A stretch of 17,443 bases of DNA from the IMG/VR virus record IMGVR_UViG_2671181033_000009, one strand, 5' to 3'. Origin of the DNA: a virus. Taxonomy: Duplodnaviria > Heunggongvirae > Uroviricota > Caudoviricetes. A program made the translations under genes and the position numbers. The notes below the pieces were generated by a model, which saw only the letters and a list, made by a program, of their open reading frames with translations, did not search any database and was not told the DNA's origin. Below, piece after piece: positions 1,882-17,443 of the stretch; position 1 is the first letter of the stretch; each line of letters starts with the position of its first letter.

Positions 1882-2679
1882 TTACAACGATTTTCGAATC
1901 GTTCTTTCCCTGATTTTTGTGGCTTTTGCTTCTGCTTGCGACAGCAGTCCTTGTTCCTGCTTGAGAATGTCTTTAAGCGGGGCGGCAAAATACACTTTCA
2001 TAAACCGCCAGATATCCCGCTGAGTCAGGCCGATATTCATCGAAGAAAAATAAAGCCCAATAAGATCTTTATCCCGCCAACGACGTGGAACGCGCGTGCG
2101 AAGCTGCGCCCGGTGCAGGTCAATTACCGAAATTTTTAACTCCTCTTCCTTACCGGAAAAAGGCAAGTGCAGCAGGAAATGACAGATATAACAGTCACGG
2201 TGGTTAATGCCCGCAGCATGCATATCGCGCACCATCGTCGCGACACGCTTAATAAGCATACGCTTTACGCGAACATCTGGAGGGTTAGTCGCCCAGTCAG
2301 CACAGTAATCTTCAAGACTTATGGTTGGTGTCAGATCTTCGGTAATAATAAATGAAGTTCTGGTCAGCGGATTCATGCCTTTTTCGCCAAATGCCACCCC
2401 ATACATAGTATCAACGCCGACATCCCGCAGTCGATGAATCGCATTCCATTCGCGGTCTGCGCCTAATACTGGCATCCGCAATGAGAGTAAATTTTTGATT
2501 ATCTCTTTCAGGGTCGTGCCGCGATGCCATTTGAGAAAATAGCTTTTGCCCGCCATTTCAAATCGCAGAGTGCGGCGAGTTTCCAGTTCACGAAAAACCT
2601 CACCCTGCAAGGTTTTAACTTCCTCAAAAGGATCTTTACCGCGCCATAACGTGGCAAACGGCTCTTTAAGTTCAACCAT
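1882..2679 (-). CDS. waaP: LPS core heptose(I) kinase WaaP
   Basis: ORF 1882..2688. The protein is recognisable as WaaP from [21 protein letters not shown], so I place the start at the ATG 2679..2677 (265 aa) rather than the GTG at 2688. It overlaps the waaG stop by 8 nt. Confidence 0.9.
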
Positions 2680-3796
2680 CCAGACCACCCGTTATGATAT
2701 CCGCCGCTTTCTCTGGCAGACTGTATAAATCTTGTGTATCAGCATAATGTCGCGCATTTTCCGCCCAGGCCTGGCGCAATGAAGATTGCGTTAACGCTTT
2801 GCGTAAAATCTCATTCAATGTTTCCTGGCGGAATGGCTCAGCAATAGCCTCGCCGCAATTGGCGTCGACAATATAATGCGCATAGCCACAAACGGCTGTT
2901 GTTAGTACCGGTAATCCTGCAGTAATCGCTTCCAGTAGCACAATTCCCGCTGCTTCCTGGTAGGCAGGATGCAGTAATAAATCCGCCGCCGCCATTAATT
3001 CCGAGACATCGTTGCGCCCCGAGAAGAAGTGAACATTACTGCGCACGCCGCGTTTTTCTGCCAGCGCCTCAAATTTTCGCGGTTTATCCTGTCCAACAAC
3101 ATATAGCAATGTGTTGTGGCGCAGCGAATCCGGTAACGAAGCAAGTGCTTCAATGGAACGATCGACACCTTTACGCGTGAAGTCTGAACCGACCTGCAAC
3201 AATAAATATTGTTGTTCGGTTATTCCATTCTTCTTACGGAAGATTTCACGGCTATTAGCTGGCTGCTGGCTATATTTACGATCAGGATAAATCCCCGGTG
3301 GCAGAATATGAAAACGCTCCGCTTCAGTCTGATAATGTTTCTGGAAATCGGCGATTTGCTTATCTGTCAGCATCAGCAGCTGTGTCGGCTTGCCCTGTTC
3401 GAAGGTTGCCCGCTCAAAGGCGGCATAATGGCGATAACGTGACGTCAGGTGATAGAAAAAGCCTTTTTCCTGCGCGACTTTCTCGGCATAACAAACATCA
3501 GCGGCATAATAAACGTCCAGCCCCGGCATTTTGTTGAATCCAACGACTTTATCGACGGGATGTTCGCGTAAATGTTTTTGCACCCAGGCAAAATACTCCG
3601 CATTGCGCCCGTGATTGGTATGCGATTTAACCGGCACTTTGATCAGTTCAAATACATCAGGGCATTCGCCTTCCCACGACTGGGTATAAACCCGAACATG
3701 ATGACCTCGGGCGGCGACTGTCTGAGCAATACGCATAAAATCGCGCTGCAAACCGCCAAAGGGAAAATATTTATATAAACAAAAAGCAACGATCAT
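2672..3796 (-). CDS. waaG: LPS glucosyltransferase I WaaG
   Basis: 374-aa ORF beginning [24 protein letters not shown], recognisable as WaaG. Its start overlaps the waaQ stop by 4 nt (ATGA). Confidence 0.95.
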
Positions 3797-4851
3797 AACG
3801 ACGTACCTGTCGTGGAGGAGGGCAGTAATTTATCGACAGCAGCAATGACATCTGCCGCCGGAATAACCGAAAGATACATCTCATTTCGGTCACGCTGATC
3901 GCGCGTTGGCATTTCCCGGTAATCTCCCGCCCAGAATTGAATCATGTTATTTGACCAGGGACGCCAGAAAATATGGTCTGTCGCACCAAACAGCGATATC
4001 AGCGGCGTATTAACTGCAGCGGCAATATGCGCCGGTGCGGAATCAACGCCAATAAACAGCTGCGCATGATCGATTAACGCACCAAGTTCCGGGAAGGTCA
4101 CCTTTCCAGCCAGCGCCGTTACTGGTGGCGTCTGGCATCCCTGCGCAATTTCATTGACGCAGGCCAGATCGTCTTTATCTGGGCCGGACGTCAGAACAAC
4201 TTCATAACCACGAGCATGTAAGGCATCAATCACAGCGGAAAACTTGGCGTTGTCCCAGCATTTGAAGATTTGCCGCGCCGTAGGTTGGATAACCACATAA
4301 TTTTGTCCAACACCAGCGTGATCAAGTTCGCGACGCATACGTTTCCAGCTTGCAGGCGGGTAACTCATGGTTGTCTGCTTCACCAACGAATCAACTCCCA
4401 ATGGGGTCAGCACGGATAAGTTACTTTCCACCACATTTCCACCCTGCAACGGCACCAAATGGGTGAAACTTTTACGCCAAAAAGCAGACTGCCGATGATG
4501 ATAATCCTGGGAAATTTTCACACGGGCATTTAATAAGCGAACCAGTATAGCAACCATCCATTGATCGGTGAGATTGACGATAAGGTCATACTTATTGGCA
4601 CGTAATACCTTGATGAGATGAAAAAAGTTGGCAATTTTTTCTGAGGCTTTTGCTTTTTTATTTTTTATGCCGTAGAGCGCGTTAATCTCTGGATTTTCAG
4701 ACAGGATCGGGATGGTGTCCTGATAAAGCAGCACATCGATTTTTGCGTCAGGGTAATTTTTTTTCAGCGAACTAATGACGGGAGTAGTTAATAACATATC
4801 CCCATGAAAACGCATCTTAATGAGCAAAATTCTTCGAAATGGCTTATCCAC
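3793..4851 (-). CDS. waaQ: LPS heptosyltransferase III WaaQ
   Basis: ORF with the heptosyltransferase N-terminal pattern (RILLIKMRFHGDMLLTTP), first gene after the JUMPstart leader. Start is either the GTG at 4851 (352 aa) or the in-frame ATG at 4815 (340 aa). Confidence 0.88.
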   Translation of the reverse strand: MDKPFRRILLIKMRFHGDMLLTTPVISSLKKNYPDAKIDVLLYQDTIPILSENPEINALYGIKNKKAKASEKIANFFHLIKVLRANKYDLIVNLTDQWMVAILVRLLNARVKISQDYHHRQSAFWRKSFTHLVPLQGGNVVESNLSVLTPLGVDSLVKQTTMSYPPASWKRMRRELDHAGVGQNYVVIQPTARQIFKCWDNAKFSAVIDALHARGYEVVLTSGPDKDDLACVNEIAQGCQTPPVTALAGKVTFPELGALIDHAQLFIGVDSAPAHIAAAVNTPLISLFGATDHIFWRPWSNNMIQFWAGDYREMPTRDQRDRNEMYLSVIPAADVIAAVDKLLPSSTTGTSL

Positions 4852-4939: not shown

Positions 4940-5263
4940 ATACCGCACTGATATTGACGCGCTAGTGTATCACTTCTTTCGCGGCAATCCGACCCGAATG
5001 ATTTTTAAGCACATTGTTGATTTTCAATAAAGAAATCAATCAAATAAAATCATTAGTAACCATATTCTTTCACTGTTGCTCTGCGATTCCTTCCTGCACG
5101 TACAGCAGAAATCAATGAATCGCATAAAAATACAAAAAAAGTATAGATGTTCAGCAAGAATTGGCGGGTAAATTGCTATTTAAGTCAAAAACGGGAAAAG
5201 TAATGGTAAAGCCACAGCTAAATACATAGAATCCCCAGCACATCCATAAGTCAGCTATTTACT

Positions 5264-7028
<1,765 letters not shown>

Positions 7029-7066
7029 CGTTTATGCCGGATGGTATGCCATCCGGCGCGCATGAA

Positions 7067-7876
7067 TTACTTCTGGCACTGCCGACAATAAAACGTTGCC
7101 CGCTGCGCATGTTTAGTCGCCACAATCGGCGTACCGCACACCCGACACGGCTCACCTTTTCGCCCGTAAACCTGCAATTCCTGAGCGAAATAGCCCGGTT
7201 TACCATCACTTTGCAGAAAATCTTTCAGCGTTGTACCACCCTGCTCAATCGAACGCAGCAACACCGCTTTAATCACCCGAGCTAACAATTCACACTCTGC
7301 CAGCGACAGTGATGACGCCAGCCGATCCGGATGGATCCCCGCCGCAAACAGTGATTCGCTGGCATAGATATTCCCTACCCCTACCACCAGCTTGTTATCC
7401 ATCAGCCACGGTTTAATCGCCGTTTTTTTCTTCGCGCACTTCTGATGCAGATACTCACCATTGAAATCGTCGCTAAGCGGCTCCGGTCCAAGATGAGCCA
7501 GCACGTTGTGCCCTTCCAGCTCTTTGGTCCACAGCCAGGCACCAAAGCGGCGCGGATCGGTGTAGCGCAGCACTTTGCCGTTGCTCATCACCAAATCCAC
7601 ATGGTCATGCTTTTCAGGGGGAAGTTCTTCTGGAAGGATGCGCAGGCTGCCAGACATCCCCAAATGAATGATAATCCAGCCCTCAGGCAGCTCCAGCAGC
7701 AGATATTTAGCCCGCCGCTGCACGCTAAGCACTGGTTGGTCGCTTAAACGGTAGATCTCTTCTGAAACCGGCCAGCGCAAGCGTCCGTTGCGCACCACCG
7801 CATGAAGAATGGTTGCACCAACGAGATGCGGTTCTATGCCGCGACGGCTGGTTTCAACTTCGGGTAATTCAGGCAT
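7067..7876 (-). CDS. mutM: Formamidopyrimidine-DNA glycosylase (Fpg/MutM)
   Basis: Protein begins [16 protein letters not shown] (catalytic N-terminal Pro after Met removal) and ends with the zinc-finger [26 protein letters not shown]. Start placed at ATG 7876, 269 aa. Confidence 0.95.
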
Positions 7877-13400: not shown

Positions 13401-14264
13401 ATGATCCGCAGTATGACCGCCTACGCCCGGCGTGAAATCAAGGGTGAATGGGGGAGCGCAACCTGGGAAATGCGCTCGGTAAACCAGCGTTATCTGGAAA
13501 CTTACTTTCGTCTGCCGGAGCAGTTCCGTAGCCTTGAACCTGTCGTTCGCGAGCGTATTCGTTCTCGCCTGACGCGCGGTAAAGTGGAATGTACCCTGCG
13601 CTATGAGCCAGATGTTAGCGCACAAGGTGAGCTAATCCTCAATGAAAAACTGGCTAAACAGCTGGTAACTGCCGCGAACTGGGTAAAAATGCAGAGTGAC
13701 GAAGGGGAAATCAACCCGGTTGATATTCTGCGCTGGCCGGGCGTGATGGCAGCCCAGGAGCAGGATCTCGACGCCATTGCCGCTGAAATTCTCGCGGCGC
13801 TGGATGGTACGCTGGACGACTTTATTGTCGCGCGCGAAACCGAAGGTCAGGCACTGAAAGCATTGATCGAGCAGCGTCTGGAAGGCGTCACCGCCGAAGT
13901 GGTCAAAGTCCGCGCCCATATGCCGGAAATCCTGCAATGGCAGCGTGAGCGTCTGGTCGCGAAGCTGGAAGATGCTCAGGTTCAGTTGGAAAACAACCGT
14001 CTGGAGCAGGAGTTGGTTCTGCTGGCACAACGAATTGACGTTGCCGAAGAACTGGACCGCCTGGAAGCGCATGTCAAAGAGACCTACAACATTCTGAAGA
14101 AAAAAGAAGCCGTTGGTCGTCGTCTGGACTTTATGATGCAGGAATTCAACCGCGAGTCGAACACTCTTGCGTCGAAATCTATCAATGCCGAAGTGACAAA
14201 CTCCGCCATCGAGCTGAAAGTGTTGATTGAGCAGATGCGCGAGCAGATTCAAAATGTGGAGTAA
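13401..14264 (+). CDS. yicC: YicC-family stress-induced protein (UPF0701)
   Basis: 287-aa ORF MIRSMTAYARREIKGEWGSATWEMRSVNQRYLE..., divergent from rph. Confidence 0.93.
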   Translation: MIRSMTAYARREIKGEWGSATWEMRSVNQRYLETYFRLPEQFRSLEPVVRERIRSRLTRGKVECTLRYEPDVSAQGELILNEKLAKQLVTAANWVKMQSDEGEINPVDILRWPGVMAAQEQDLDAIAAEILAALDGTLDDFIVARETEGQALKALIEQRLEGVTAEVVKVRAHMPEILQWQRERLVAKLEDAQVQLENNRLEQELVLLAQRIDVAEELDRLEAHVKETYNILKKKEAVGRRLDFMMQEFNRESNTLASKSINAEVTNSAIELKVLIEQMREQIQNVE

Positions 14265-14302
14265 GCTATCAGAGGAAATCAATAAAGCGCAATAATCCAA
14301 TC

Positions 14303-14328
14303 AAACCCGCGATAATGCGGGTTTTTTT
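14303..14328 (+). terminator. Rho-independent terminator of yicC
   Basis: AAACCCGC-GATAAT-GCGGGTTTTTTT: a GC stem followed by a 7-T tract, 39 nt after the yicC stop. Confidence 0.75.
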
Positions 14329-14373
14329 GTAATTAATGGCTATCACAACGACGCAAGAAAGCGCATGATTAGC

Positions 14374-14425
14374 GTGTACCCAAAGGTGTACCCAATTGCA
14401 TTTTGGAACATCTGTTTGGGTACAC
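14374..14425. repeat. Three copies of GTGTACCC (two direct, one inverted) upstream of the integrase gene; candidate integrase arm-type or operator sites
   Basis: GTGTACCC at 14374..14381 and 14386..14393, and its reverse complement GGGTACAC at 14418..14425, within 80 bp upstream of the integrase ATG. Confidence 0.4.
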
Positions 14426-14454
14426 CCCCCTATTCAATGTTCAGGAGTTTCTTA

Positions 14455-15717
14455 ATGCCAAAGCTCACAGATATTCAGATCAGGGCATGGATAAAATCAG
14501 GTGAACGATTCGAAGGACGGTCAGATGGCGATGGCTTATACCTTCGTTACCGGAAAGAAGACCAGATACCAACATGGCGATTCCGCTACAAATTCGCAGG
14601 AAAAGCACGGGCAATGGTCATTGGCTCCTATGCTGATTACTCGCTATCAAAAGCCAGAGAAACAGCAAAGGAACTATCCGCTCGCGTCGCACTTGGGTAC
14701 GACGTAGCAGCAGAGAAACAGGAGCGTAAGGCCGAAGCCCTGGCAAAAATTGAGGCAGAAAAAAAGGCCGTGCGCGTATCAGAGCTTGCTGCCGAATATT
14801 TCGAACGTCAGATACTGCCACGATGGAAACATCCCGACATCCTGCGCCGTCGCATCGACAAAGACATAAACCCGCGTATTGGTCATATGAAGGTTGAGGA
14901 CGTAAAACCACGACACATTGACGAGATGCTAAAGGCAATTGTTGACCGTGGAGCGCCAACCATTGCAACGGACGTTCTGCGATGGACGCGCCGCATATTC
15001 GACTACGGGATAAAACGTCATGTGCTGGAGATTAACCCGTGCTCGGCGTTTGAAGTCTCTGATGCTGGTGGCAAGGAGTCATCCCGCGATCGCTGGCTGA
15101 CCCGTGAAGAGTTAATCCGGTTCTTTCAGGCCATGCGTACCGCAAAGGGATTCAGCCGACAGAACGAGCTAACCTTCAAGTTGCTACTGGCGCTTTGCGT
15201 CAGGAAGATGGAGTTGTGCGCCGCCAGATGGGAAGAGTTCGACCTTGATAACGCCGTGTGGCATTTGCCAGAGGAACGCAGCAAAAACGGCGACCCCATA
15301 GATATTCCACTTGTTCCCCCCGTTATTGAATGGCTGAAAGAACTGCGCGTCTTGTCATGCAATAGCGCGTGGGTACTTCCGGCGCGGAAAATGCAGCACA
15401 GGATGATCCCCCACATTCAGGAGAGCACCCTACCCGTTGCACTGCAAAAAGTTCGCGCAGAGATGTCGGAGGTTCCAGATTTCACTATTCACGACTTCCG
15501 CCGTACAGCACGCACACATTTAGCCGCGCTTGGTGTTGATCCGGTAGTCGCTGAAAGATGCCTCAATCACCGCATCAAGGGAGTCGAGGGCATATACAAT
15601 CGCTATCAGTATTTCGATGAACGGACTTCGGCGCTGGCGAAATGGACCAATCTGTTAGTGTCGCTGGAACGCGGGGAACGCTACAACGTGACACCAATCA
15701 GAAGGGCCAAAGCATGA
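14455..15717 (+). CDS. int: Tyrosine-type site-specific integrase (P4/CP4-57-like, with N-terminal arm-binding domain)
   Basis: ATG 14455 with AGGAG 7 nt upstream gives 420 aa. N-terminus MPKLTDIQIRAW...GDGLYLRYRKEDQIPTWRFRYKFAGK is typical of the arm-binding domain; C-terminal HDFRRT (HxxR) and YNRYQY supply the catalytic residues. The ORF-track start at 14365 is an unlikely extension. Confidence 0.9.
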   Translation: MPKLTDIQIRAWIKSGERFEGRSDGDGLYLRYRKEDQIPTWRFRYKFAGKARAMVIGSYADYSLSKARETAKELSARVALGYDVAAEKQERKAEALAKIEAEKKAVRVSELAAEYFERQILPRWKHPDILRRRIDKDINPRIGHMKVEDVKPRHIDEMLKAIVDRGAPTIATDVLRWTRRIFDYGIKRHVLEINPCSAFEVSDAGGKESSRDRWLTREELIRFFQAMRTAKGFSRQNELTFKLLLALCVRKMELCAARWEEFDLDNAVWHLPEERSKNGDPIDIPLVPPVIEWLKELRVLSCNSAWVLPARKMQHRMIPHIQESTLPVALQKVRAEMSEVPDFTIHDFRRTARTHLAALGVDPVVAERCLNHRIKGVEGIYNRYQYFDERTSALAKWTNLLVSLERGERYNVTPIRRAKA

Positions 15718-16364
15718 TTAATATCCTGAAAAAATCGCCAATAGAACGCCTGTGCGCTTCTGTTTCAATCACTCCGCACGAAATGGCCCTTGCACTGGCT
15801 GGCCTTAATCCGTCAATGAGAATAGGCGACGTGCCGCAGGACAAGTTCGAACAGGTCGAATCAGCCAGAACGATGATAGCCCGTGCTATCTGGTTGCATA
15901 GCGGCAGGAAAGCGGGAAAGGATGAGCCATACAGAGCGGGGGATATATTCCTTGCGTCCTTCCCGTTCATTGAGGCAGGAACGCCAGAGGCAATAATTAC
16001 GGCGGTAACTGATGCCATTGATGATTTACGAGGAACAAAAAATTGGGAAGAAAAAGCACTTAATCTTGGTGGGCGGCGGCTGGTCAGCCACATCAAAGAA
16101 ACAAGCCGCAGCGGAAGGGGGCAGTACAGGAAACTCGACGAAGAACAGGGAAACATGAAGATGATGGGGTTGCTGGTTTTACTGCTCGTGAAGAAATCAG
16201 GCACAACCGCATACATTCAGGACGGAGAACCAAACCGTTCAGCCATTTACCGCGACGTGGAAGCGCTGATGAAGGAGAAAGGGATATCGCCAAAAGGGAT
16301 CGCCAAATCCACGTTTATGCAAAAAATATCAGCCGCATTACTGGCAGTAAGCCAGGCAGATTAA
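15714..16364 (+). CDS. Hypothetical protein of unknown function (island cargo, 216 aa)
   Basis: ATG 15714 overlaps the integrase stop (ATGA) with GAAGGG 8 nt upstream. Composition is protein-like, whereas the antisense ORF is S/P/C-rich. I recognise no motif or family. Confidence 0.6.
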   Translation: MINILKKSPIERLCASVSITPHEMALALAGLNPSMRIGDVPQDKFEQVESARTMIARAIWLHSGRKAGKDEPYRAGDIFLASFPFIEAGTPEAIITAVTDAIDDLRGTKNWEEKALNLGGRRLVSHIKETSRSGRGQYRKLDEEQGNMKMMGLLVLLLVKKSGTTAYIQDGEPNRSAIYRDVEALMKEKGISPKGIAKSTFMQKISAALLAVSQAD

Positions 16365-16750
16365 CCAGCCAACACGCCCTGTATTCACGGGGCTGTAATC
16401 CCCATACATCCCCCACCAGCAAAATTTACTCACCGTTCTTAATCGTTATAAATCGGTATAAACAGGATTAGCACGTTAAAGACTGGCAAAAGATGGCAAA
16501 ACATAACAACGCATAACGGCGCAGTAGGAGTATTACGGTATCAGAACGTATACGGCTTCAATGACTTATCACCAATAAAGCAAAAACTTTCAAAGTTTTA
16601 GCACTCCATCCCGCCTGTTCAATCTTTTACTGGAAGTGTGTTTTTTCAATAGATTTTCGGAACGTTTTAATAGATTCCAGATTTGGTGGAATGCTGTACA
16701 AACAACCAATAGAATGGAGAAAACATCAACTTTTAACCCATGAGGGAATC

Positions 16751-16966
16751 ATGACAGCTAACCATCAAGAAGCTATCCCTACCACGGGCTATATCCGCCG
16801 CTGCAACCTGGCTAAGTTGCTTGATACCAGCGTGTCAACTATCGACCGCTGGGTGCGTATCGGCAAATTACCGAAGCCCACGAAGCTGGGGGAGAAAAAC
16901 ACCGTATTTAATGCGGTGGAGATCAACCACTGGCTGAACGAGCGCCGCAACAACACCAAGCAGTAA
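16751..16966 (+). CDS. alpA: AlpA-family phage/island transcriptional regulator (excisionase-like HTH)
   Basis: ATG 16751 with GAGGGA 5 nt upstream gives 72 aa. The architecture (LAKLLDTSVSTIDRWV ... VFNAVEINHWLNERR) resembles AlpA/TorI-type small DNA-binding proteins. Confidence 0.8.
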   Translation: MTANHQEAIPTTGYIRRCNLAKLLDTSVSTIDRWVRIGKLPKPTKLGEKNTVFNAVEINHWLNERRNNTKQ

Positions 16967-17033
16967 TCAGCATGACGGGCGTACAGTTCCGCGCCCGTCA
17001 GCACCAAACCTGATTCTACAGCAGGAGTTTTTA

Positions 17034-17411
17034 ATGAAACGTCCGAATATGCCCGTACAGGGGCAGGGCTTCGTTCAGCCTGAAATCAGCCAGAACGATA
17101 TATTGATTCGCCACAAAGCGGAGTCGCGTATTGATTCCCGCGTTATTTCTGAGCGAGCAGGAATACAACACGAAAGTATCATTGCGACGATTAAATCTCA
17201 TCAATCCAGATTGCGCGAGCTTGGCTCACTGCCTCGCCAGTCAGTCAAGGAATTAACCTATTTGAAATCGGGAAAACCTGGCCGCAAGCGCGGTCGTCCT
17301 GAAATTAGTTATTTGCTGAATGAGCTACAGCTTGACTATCTGTTACGCGTTATCCGTGGGCGTGACGCAGAACGTATCAACCTGAACCGCCCCGGAAATC
17401 CTGGAGACTAA
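17034..17411 (+). CDS. Hypothetical island protein, possibly phage regulatory Rha-like
   Basis: 125-aa ORF with AGGAG 8 nt upstream of the ATG. The segment DSRVISERAGIQHESIIATIKSH resembles the N-terminal motif of Rha-like phage regulators, but the assignment is weak. Confidence 0.55.
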   Translation: MKRPNMPVQGQGFVQPEISQNDILIRHKAESRIDSRVISERAGIQHESIIATIKSHQSRLRELGSLPRQSVKELTYLKSGKPGRKRGRPEISYLLNELQLDYLLRVIRGRDAERINLNRPGNPGD

Positions 17412-17443
17412 ACTCCCTGAGAAAGAGGTAAACAGGATGACTA

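Follow-up and report, generated by a model that had tools for sequence, protein, structure and literature searches.

Repressors that are co-expressed with an integrase are known from staphylococcal pathogenicity islands (SaPIs; stl-int) and from the phages P2 (C-int) and 186 (cI-int), and in P2, where repressor and integrase share one operon, the operator of the C protein is made up of direct repeats that lie on the early promoter at a spacing of about two helical turns. For the phage-inducible chromosomal islands (PICIs) of Gram-negative bacteria, AlpA has been described as the master activator, which in EcCICFT073 activates its own promoter; helper phages switch on alpA through an inducer reported as unidentified, and whether there is a global repressor has been called unclear (PMC6092414). 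The subject of the present analysis is a stretch of 17,443 nucleotides (nt), the virus record IMGVR_UViG_2671181033_000009 (referred to as the window, meaning the whole stretch at its full length), the right part of which belongs to an element that by its gene layout is a PICI/P4-like satellite inserted 3' of yicC. Between the integrase gene (int) and alpA of this satellite lies an open reading frame (ORF) for a protein of 216 amino acids (aa), here abbreviated X, and islands with and without it are referred to as X+ and X- islands. X is a real and conserved gene, more than a chance frame, it is tied to int, and it is exchanged between islands in one cassette together with direct repeats located on the predicted alpA promoter. 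We tentatively regard X as a new DNA-binding regulator of that promoter, and it is more likely to be an on/off regulator of the satellite than an anti-phage weapon. The features that bear on this view are the following:

14455..15717, plus strand: int, P4-type tyrosine integrase of 420 aa (Pfam Arm-DNA-bind_3, Phage_int_M and Phage_integrase; PHROG 1 integrase, 6e-63; RefSeq WP_001125365.1)
15701..15706, plus strand: Shine-Dalgarno-like (SD-like) GAAGGG for X, read from the sequence, 7 nt before the ATG and inside the 3' end of int
15714..16364, plus strand: X ORF, a 216-aa orphan protein, all-alpha and two-domain (RefSeq WP_000608240.1, "hypothetical protein"; PHROG 30524)
16627..16692, plus strand: four same-orientation repeats, the proposed operator of X, namely R0 TTACTGGAAG at 16627-16636, R1 TCAATAGATT at 16646-16655, R2 TTAATAGATT at 16667-16676 and R3 TTGGTGGAAT at 16683-16692
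16710..16715, plus strand: -10-like hexamer TAGAAT of the predicted alpA promoter, read from the sequence, exactly 17 nt after R3 and 35 nt before the alpA ATG
16751..16966, plus strand: alpA-family regulator of 71 aa (Pfam HTH_17 and Phage_AlpA; RefSeq start 16751)

In functional terms X would most closely resemble the immunity repressors of satellites and phages, such as Stl, P2 C and 186 cI, although it falls outside those families. Like the Stl protein of SaPIs, X is the product of an int neighbour at the regulatory end of a satellite and is highly variable between otherwise similar islands (in part from PMC6092414), and it is placed to control the promoter that starts the cycle, the logic proposed by analogy being silence until a helper signal arrives. 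On the other hand, X shares neither sequence nor fold similarity with Stl and lacks an N-terminal XRE-type helix-turn-helix (HTH), and it is co-directional with its presumed target, downstream of int and translationally coupled to it, whereas Stl is divergent. P2 C and 186 cI offer the parallel of a repressor-int operon, and the direct repeats of P2 C may be likened to the 19-21-bp array described here; P2 C is, however, a protein of about 99 aa with an unrelated sequence, and the gene order is reversed, int preceding X in the present case.

A previous sequence-only reading of this DNA had placed the start of X at an ATG (15714-15716) that overlaps the integrase stop codon TGA (15715-15717) in an ATGA, behind the SD-like GAAGGG, and this is borne out by the sequence itself, by the RefSeq coding sequence and by recurrence of the arrangement across 15 distinct loci. 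From that ATG the frame is open through to the TAA at 16362-16364. In all 15 loci X stands directly behind a P4-type integrase, the distance from the int stop to X being -4 (six loci), -1 (two), +1 (two), +2 (two), +8, +11 and +98 (one each), that is, an overlap or a start no more than 11 nt downstream in 14 of the 15, and a purine-rich SD precedes X in the homologous junctions inspected. As judged from this gene arrangement, the further claim that X is co-expressed with the integrase through translational coupling is supported. The integrases that accompany X include clades which are mutually only 27-29% identical, and they occupy at least three kinds of site (the yicC 3' end, ssrA and one other). 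X is under purifying selection, with a dN/dS of 0.135 against the 91%-identical allele of E2855, compared to 0.087 for the integrase, and the frame is conserved in related islands, with full-length homologues down to about 22% identity. An antisense ORF of 172 aa over X (15698-16216, minus strand) has nothing supporting it and no RefSeq annotation, and was taken as a chance frame.

The second component of the cassette is the repeat array, the four copies of which are spaced 19, 21 and 16 bp apart in the window. The -35 position of the predicted alpA promoter is taken up by R3. The -10 of this promoter is fair and its -35 not recognisable, and because this -35 is poor a scan with the consensus sigma-70 pattern called no alpA promoter. 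The alpA start given by RefSeq, 16751, which yields 71 aa and has the SD GAGGGAA, agrees with the promoter, while the ATG at 16691 of the ORF list (91 aa) is over-extended and falls inside R3, upstream of the predicted -10. The alpA call at locus L011 (103 aa) is likewise over-extended, hiding four repeats (L011 6995-7061). Operator-like repeats over the promoter of the induction operon, as expected of a master repressor, are found at all 13 main-type X+ loci, each of which has three to four same-orientation copies of TYRNTRGAWW at a spacing of about 19-21/21/16 bp, and we infer that X is the protein that binds them. At most of these loci a -10-like hexamer (TAGAAT, TAAACT, TAGCAT, TACTAT, TAAAGT or TAATCT) follows the end of the last repeat after 17-18 nt, and where the start call is reliable this repeat lies about 65-90 nt before alpA; in L013 and L023 the repeats are there and no comparable -10 was identified, and the hexamer of L011 is weak. 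The array persists even at an X identity of no more than 25-30%, with the remainder of the spacer no longer alignable, and L007, L024 and L025, examined after the motif had been defined, each carry it. In the divergent X subfamily (L017, L012) the TGGAAT-type repeats give way to three ATCCGGAC repeats, 19-21 bp apart, again before alpA. Five X- islands (UMNK88, 2000-3039, ABU 83972, EC21Z-137 and EcCICFT073), in contrast, have before alpA neither a TYRNTRGAWW array nor any other direct repeats at a spacing of about 20 bp.

Of the genes at the loci examined, X alone is found in every island with repeats and in none without them. Sequence comparison indicates that the repeats do not track AlpA: the AlpA of UMNK88 is 68-75% identical to those of X+ islands and has an almost identical recognition helix, yet its island is without repeats, while the regulator of vB_KppS-Ant is only about 20% identical, yet it is accompanied by the same repeats. 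They do not track the integrase either, because the Int proteins of FMU073332 (X+) and UMNK88 (X-) are 99% identical. The possibility that the repeats are arm-type sites of the integrase was also considered and rejected, since they are in the wrong place and of the wrong sequence, the likely arm sites reading GTGTACMYAA and lying at the att (attachment-site) ends.

The pair FMU073332 and UMNK88 also reveals how X is exchanged. Their islands occupy the same att site, an unrelated 321-aa gene replaces X in UMNK88, and homology between the two is lost about 10 codons short of the int stop and regained about 10 codons into alpA, showing that the segment from the int 3' end to the alpA 5' end is exchanged as one cassette. 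By this comparison the integrase does not need X, because a 99%-identical enzyme occurs with an unrelated gene in its place. Across related islands, the int-alpA interval holds X in some and lacks it or has it replaced in others. Sister yicC islands with a single unrelated orphan gene between int and alpA are seen at L015 10356-11321 (321 aa), L021 1624-2250 (208 aa) and L022 2530-3375 (281 aa); these occupants have no Pfam match and no clear PADLOC match, a profile comparison with X gave no relationship (probabilities ≤ 0.3%), and each might represent an analogous regulator or new cargo. Of two E. coli PICIs that have been studied by experiment, the prototype EcCICFT073 has int followed by alpA with no gene separating them, and EcCIMP1 has a small unrelated ORF at the position of X. 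At the other extreme, the yicC island of strain 2000-3039 has a 6-kb insert in the interval that includes RmrT/RmrA (PADLOC 1e-149 and 1e-52), the ssrA island L017 (7001-9167) has P0054, an X homologue of about 23% identity that occurs in 137 complete E. coli genomes, followed by PD-T7-5 (PADLOC 2e-137), and L012 has Abi_alpha (PDC-S47) and an Mrr-like gene after X.

The view expressed in the sequence-only reading, that the integrase-proximal interval is a hotspot of accessory and defence functions, is therefore true of the interval, as exemplified by RmrT/RmrA, PD-T7-5 and the unrelated 208-, 281- and 321-aa genes. However, wherever recognised defence genes co-occur with X (L012, L017), they are located downstream of it, between X and alpA, and X behaves as the int-anchored element of the interval, not as inserted cargo, which sharpens the map of this hotspot in that defence cargo inserts between X and alpA. 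X diverges much faster than the integrase, Int being 80% and X 32% identical at L008, and 71% and 28%, respectively, at L018.

With regard to the protein itself, its description as uncharacterised has held, in that X matched only PHROG 30524, a family of unknown function (E = 1.9e-31, residues 11-209 to profile positions 14-213 of 220). Pfam and NCBIfam gave no match at E ≤ 1, the PDB gave none with the single sequence and one chance match with the profile (E = 1.8), and PADLOC-DB v2 gave only PDLC01076, "DNA binding HTH" (E = 0.045, 11.7 bits, residues 149-214); no enzymatic, nucleotide-binding or membrane domain was found in X. AlphaFold2, run on an alignment of 24 sequences, returned a confident all-helical model (pLDDT 91.1, pTM 0.60) with two domains, 1-131 and 137-216, and between them a low-confidence loop that holds the most conserved motif of the family, the invariant SGRGxHRKxDE (residues 133-143). 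Searches against families and the PDB together with structure prediction thus yielded an all-helical two-domain protein and no match to a characterised family, and no fold relative of the X family is known. With a pI of 9.7 the C-terminal domain is basic, and it ends in a conserved, HTH-like KGxxKSTFxxK segment. A Pfam scan of the 24 aligned members gave only sub-threshold matches (Phage_AlpA, HTH_Tnp_Mu_2, SpoIIID), mostly at residues ~166-213, one of the two HTH_Tnp_Mu_2 matches (P0028) falling at residues 82-113 instead, and one distant family member matched Phage_AlpA below threshold at residues 188-213 (E = 0.024). This pattern suggests that the C-terminal region may be an HTH-like reader of DNA. 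The earlier statement that X has no catalytic, HTH or transmembrane signature accordingly stands at the curated Pfam and NCBIfam thresholds, and HTH-like matches beneath them map to ~166-214. Two further candidates within X were rejected, namely an N-terminal HTH at residues 21-41, where the model has no recognition helix, and a membrane segment at 148-161, which belongs to a long amphipathic helix with charges on either side.

Taken as a regulatory unit, the cassette from the last int codons to the first alpA codons would consist of X, coupled to Int, and an alpA promoter bearing direct repeats about two helical turns apart, the proximal one on the -35 position. The basic C-terminal helical domain of X would read these repeats, its N-terminal domain would serve oligomerisation or sensing, and X bound to the array would gate transcription of alpA and hence the activator of excision and replication. 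The sign that we favour is repression, with X made together with Int on entry, maintaining quiescence until it is relieved by a signal from the helper phage, because the proximal site covers the -35 and because repressor and integrase are co-expressed in stl-int, P2 C-int and 186 cI-int; alternatively, X might be an activator that replaces the -35, as at pho-box promoters. Since X and the repeats co-occur down to about 25% identity and are absent together, a regulatory cassette fits better than a defence effector. X and its array thereby provide a concrete and cheaply testable candidate for how Gram-negative PICIs stay silent or for how alpA is switched on. A bolder extension, which we regard as unlikely at present, would give X the part of the missing switch in a large group of Gram-negative satellites, as a repressor or sensor of new fold on -35 repeats that a helper-phage protein inactivates or converts, and would treat the 208-, 281- and 321-aa genes as non-homologous analogues setting helper specificity in the manner of Stl alleles.

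Several observations weigh against a role of X at the alpA promoter. X and the repeats are physically linked within one swapped cassette, so that linkage may account for their co-occurrence and the repeats may be bound by some other factor, be it AlpA or a protein of the helper phage or the host. The loci used to define the repeat pattern were of the kind in which it was then counted, which inflates the shuffle statistics. Satellites function without X, as in EcCICFT073, where int and alpA have nothing between them; X and alpA point in the same direction, while classical immunity repressors are divergent; and the evolution of X, far faster than that of Int (32% against 80% at L008), would also fit an effector engaged in an arms race. 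Xis/AlpA-type proteins often bind direct repeats, and a repeat lying over a poor -35 is a usual sign of an activator-dependent promoter. Binding of the repeats by AlpA is a live alternative because AlpA activates its own promoter in EcCICFT073, although that island is without repeats, and helper phages induce alpA (PMC6092414); X would then be an unrelated passenger, engaged for example in helper interference or host modulation, beside repeats that serve AlpA autoactivation or an activator from the helper phage or the host. We consider this improbable, given that the repeat sequence is constant while AlpA recognition helices vary widely, that repeats are missing from islands whose AlpA is 68-75% identical to repeat-bearing ones, and that X alone is common to the repeat-bearing islands and missing from the others examined.

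A regulatory role of X has also to be weighed against two readings that dispense with the array. The sequence-only reading had offered defence as a hypothesis, and X could indeed be accessory cargo with a single-gene anti-phage, abortive-infection or exclusion function, expressed constitutively with int. Satellites are known to carry defence genes (PMC13586616), and with such cargo (PD-T7-5, RmrTA) X shares the interval, exchangeability by recombination at the int 3' end and a fast, arms-race-like divergence; the hotspot nature of the interval, from the 321-aa gene behind the 99%-identical Int of UMNK88 to RmrT/RmrA and other genes in 2000-3039 and PD-T7-5 and the Abi_alpha/Mrr-like genes in L017 and L012, points in the same direction. 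However, X has no match to a defence model that can be called credible (the best being the HTH model at E = 0.045) and no enzymatic, nucleotide-binding or membrane domain, its family is limited to satellites beside integrases, it stays abutting int while recognised defence genes are inserted after it, and a defence function leaves unexplained the conserved promoter repeats that accompany it. Defence is consequently not supported as the leading idea, and we hold it to be doubtful; if X were a defence or exclusion gene after all, it would represent a new single-gene system with a new fold. The strict adjacency and coupling to int in 15 of 15 loci, across clades 27-29% identical, would in turn agree with an accessory factor of the integrase, either a recombination directionality factor (RDF) or architectural protein, or an Int chaperone or inhibitor kept at a fixed ratio by coupling, as would the basic C-terminal domain and a weak correlation between Int and X pairwise identities (Pearson r = 0.56, n = 45 non-independent pairs). 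Such a role appears highly improbable in view of the 99%-identical Int that does without X at the same att site, and of EcCICFT073-type islands, which integrate and excise without such a gene. Moreover, an excisionase would be expected to have its sites within the att arms, whereas the X-linked repeats (16627-16692) lie on the alpA promoter, by their positions about 2.3 kb from attL, and differ in sequence from the arm-type sites. X shares with the AlpA/Vis/Xis regulators, which act in the control of satellite induction and excision, its neighbourhood and perhaps DNA binding; it is, however, three times larger, two-domain and under every family threshold, and a genuine AlpA/Vis-type regulator is already encoded directly downstream. 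The remark that X is too large for a typical excisionase is in keeping with this, since excisionases and RDFs (Xis, AlpA, Vis, Cox) are winged-helix proteins of about 60-100 aa, and the 216-aa X matches no known excisionase fold or family.

The X family is small. A word-indexed search of 5.8 billion proteins returned 19 relatives and a profile search with HMMER, run exhaustively over 1.84 billion cluster representatives, only 35, nearly all of 206-241 aa, while a second profile search adds a Yersinia group and the E. coli ssrA-island variant P0054 (1,438 member sequences). All named source organisms are Enterobacterales; among 5,426 complete E. coli genomes, main-type X is present in about 203 and the ssrA type in 137, together roughly 340. 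The family is restricted to satellites, beside integrases, and is not spread over defence islands. In a phage collection searched by tblastn with three family members, only vB_KppS-Ant matched, P4, P2 and the other records being without X, and literature searches with the RefSeq accessions, the PHROG number and the yicC-dinD island found no paper mentioning X in the library searched. vB_KppS-Ant (L003, LR881103.1) has int, X and a regulator with the same repeat array at 5123-7868. It is a 16.5-kb induced "phage" with capsid, portal and terminase genes, the sole tail-related annotation being a tape measure protein, and from this gene content it looks like a capsid-forming PICI-like satellite, so that the module would be common to classical and capsid-forming satellites. 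Another record, L007 (CACSKA010000004.1), is titled Chryseobacterium sp., yet it has the yicC-int-X-alpA layout typical of Enterobacterales, on account of which it may be mislabelled or contaminated.

The remaining features of the element and its surroundings in the window are as follows:

13401..14264, plus strand: yicC, chromosomal gene with its 3' flank serving as the attachment site (Pfam YicC-like_N and YicC-like_C; NCBIfam TIGR00255, 1e-138; RefSeq annotation)
14303..14324, plus strand: intrinsic terminator of yicC (terminator scan; 9-bp stem, then a T-run), the left boundary of the island lying just past it
14374-14383 and 14386-14395, with an inverted copy at 14417-14425, no strand assigned: putative arm-type sites of the integrase, read from the sequence, GTGTACCCAA in the first two positions and TGGGTACAC in the third
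16372..16396, plus strand: hairpin right after the X stop, without a U-run, at which the transcript may end or be processed (RNA fold -17.1 kcal/mol, z = -2.4)
16484..16503, plus strand: 10-bp tandem repeat TGGCAAAAGA / TGGCAAAACA in the X-alpA spacer, read from the sequence
17034..17411, plus strand: Rha-like regulator gene, truncated by an IS3-mediated inversion (Pfam Phage_pRha; comparison with intact or otherwise arranged islands)

The true start of the integrase is 14455, as opposed to the ATG at 14365 given in the ORF list, and the candidate arm-type sites sit between the yicC terminator and this start. The island of FMU073332 has GTGTACATAA doublets at both attL and attR, and these doublets, like the matching GTGTACCCAA/TGGGTACAC copies of the window, are probably arm-type sites. 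Downstream of X, hairpins are found in L006 and L018 at the position equivalent to 16372-16396, and an Rfam scan of 14200-17443 gave only chance-level matches. Repeats with a 10-bp phase just downstream of X also occur in L018 (7766-7815) and L006 (6853-6872), their sequence differing per island, and the X-less EcCICFT073 has 10-bp-phased repeats just downstream of int (L026 9188-9247).

The X-alpA spacer of the window measures 386 bp and is followed by the alpA-family gene, the truncated rha-like gene and the end of the window at an IS3. In intact relatives the gene order at the yicC 3' end is int-X-alpA-antA/rha-icd-primase (DUF927)-ssb-perC, and the island of the relatives beyond alpA comprises antA/rha, icd, ash, the DUF927 primase, ssb, proQ, perC, yeeE and a Q-like gene, up to dinD. 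These intact relatives show the hallmarks of Gram-negative PICIs, that is, int, alpA and pri-rep genes in the same orientation, a dedicated att site and an absence of phage lysis and tail genes.

The window is 100% identical to the chromosome of E. coli 2013C-4974 (NZ_CP027587.1), and its left 14.3 kb consist of the core genes waa/rfa, coaD, mutM, rpmBG, radC, coaBC, dut, slmA, pyrE, rph and yicC. Two IS3 copies in opposite orientation flank an inversion that covers most of the island in this strain (window 17034-17443; L002 18138-19351 and from 33051 onwards) and splits the rha-like gene and dinD. OkiPb01713 has the same split halves of rha and dinD, with an IS3 at one junction only. In the core region, rfaQ (lipopolysaccharide core heptosyltransferase; ~3794-4851, minus strand) is frameshifted in 2013C-4974 according to RefSeq, yet it reads as a 352-aa frame in the window.

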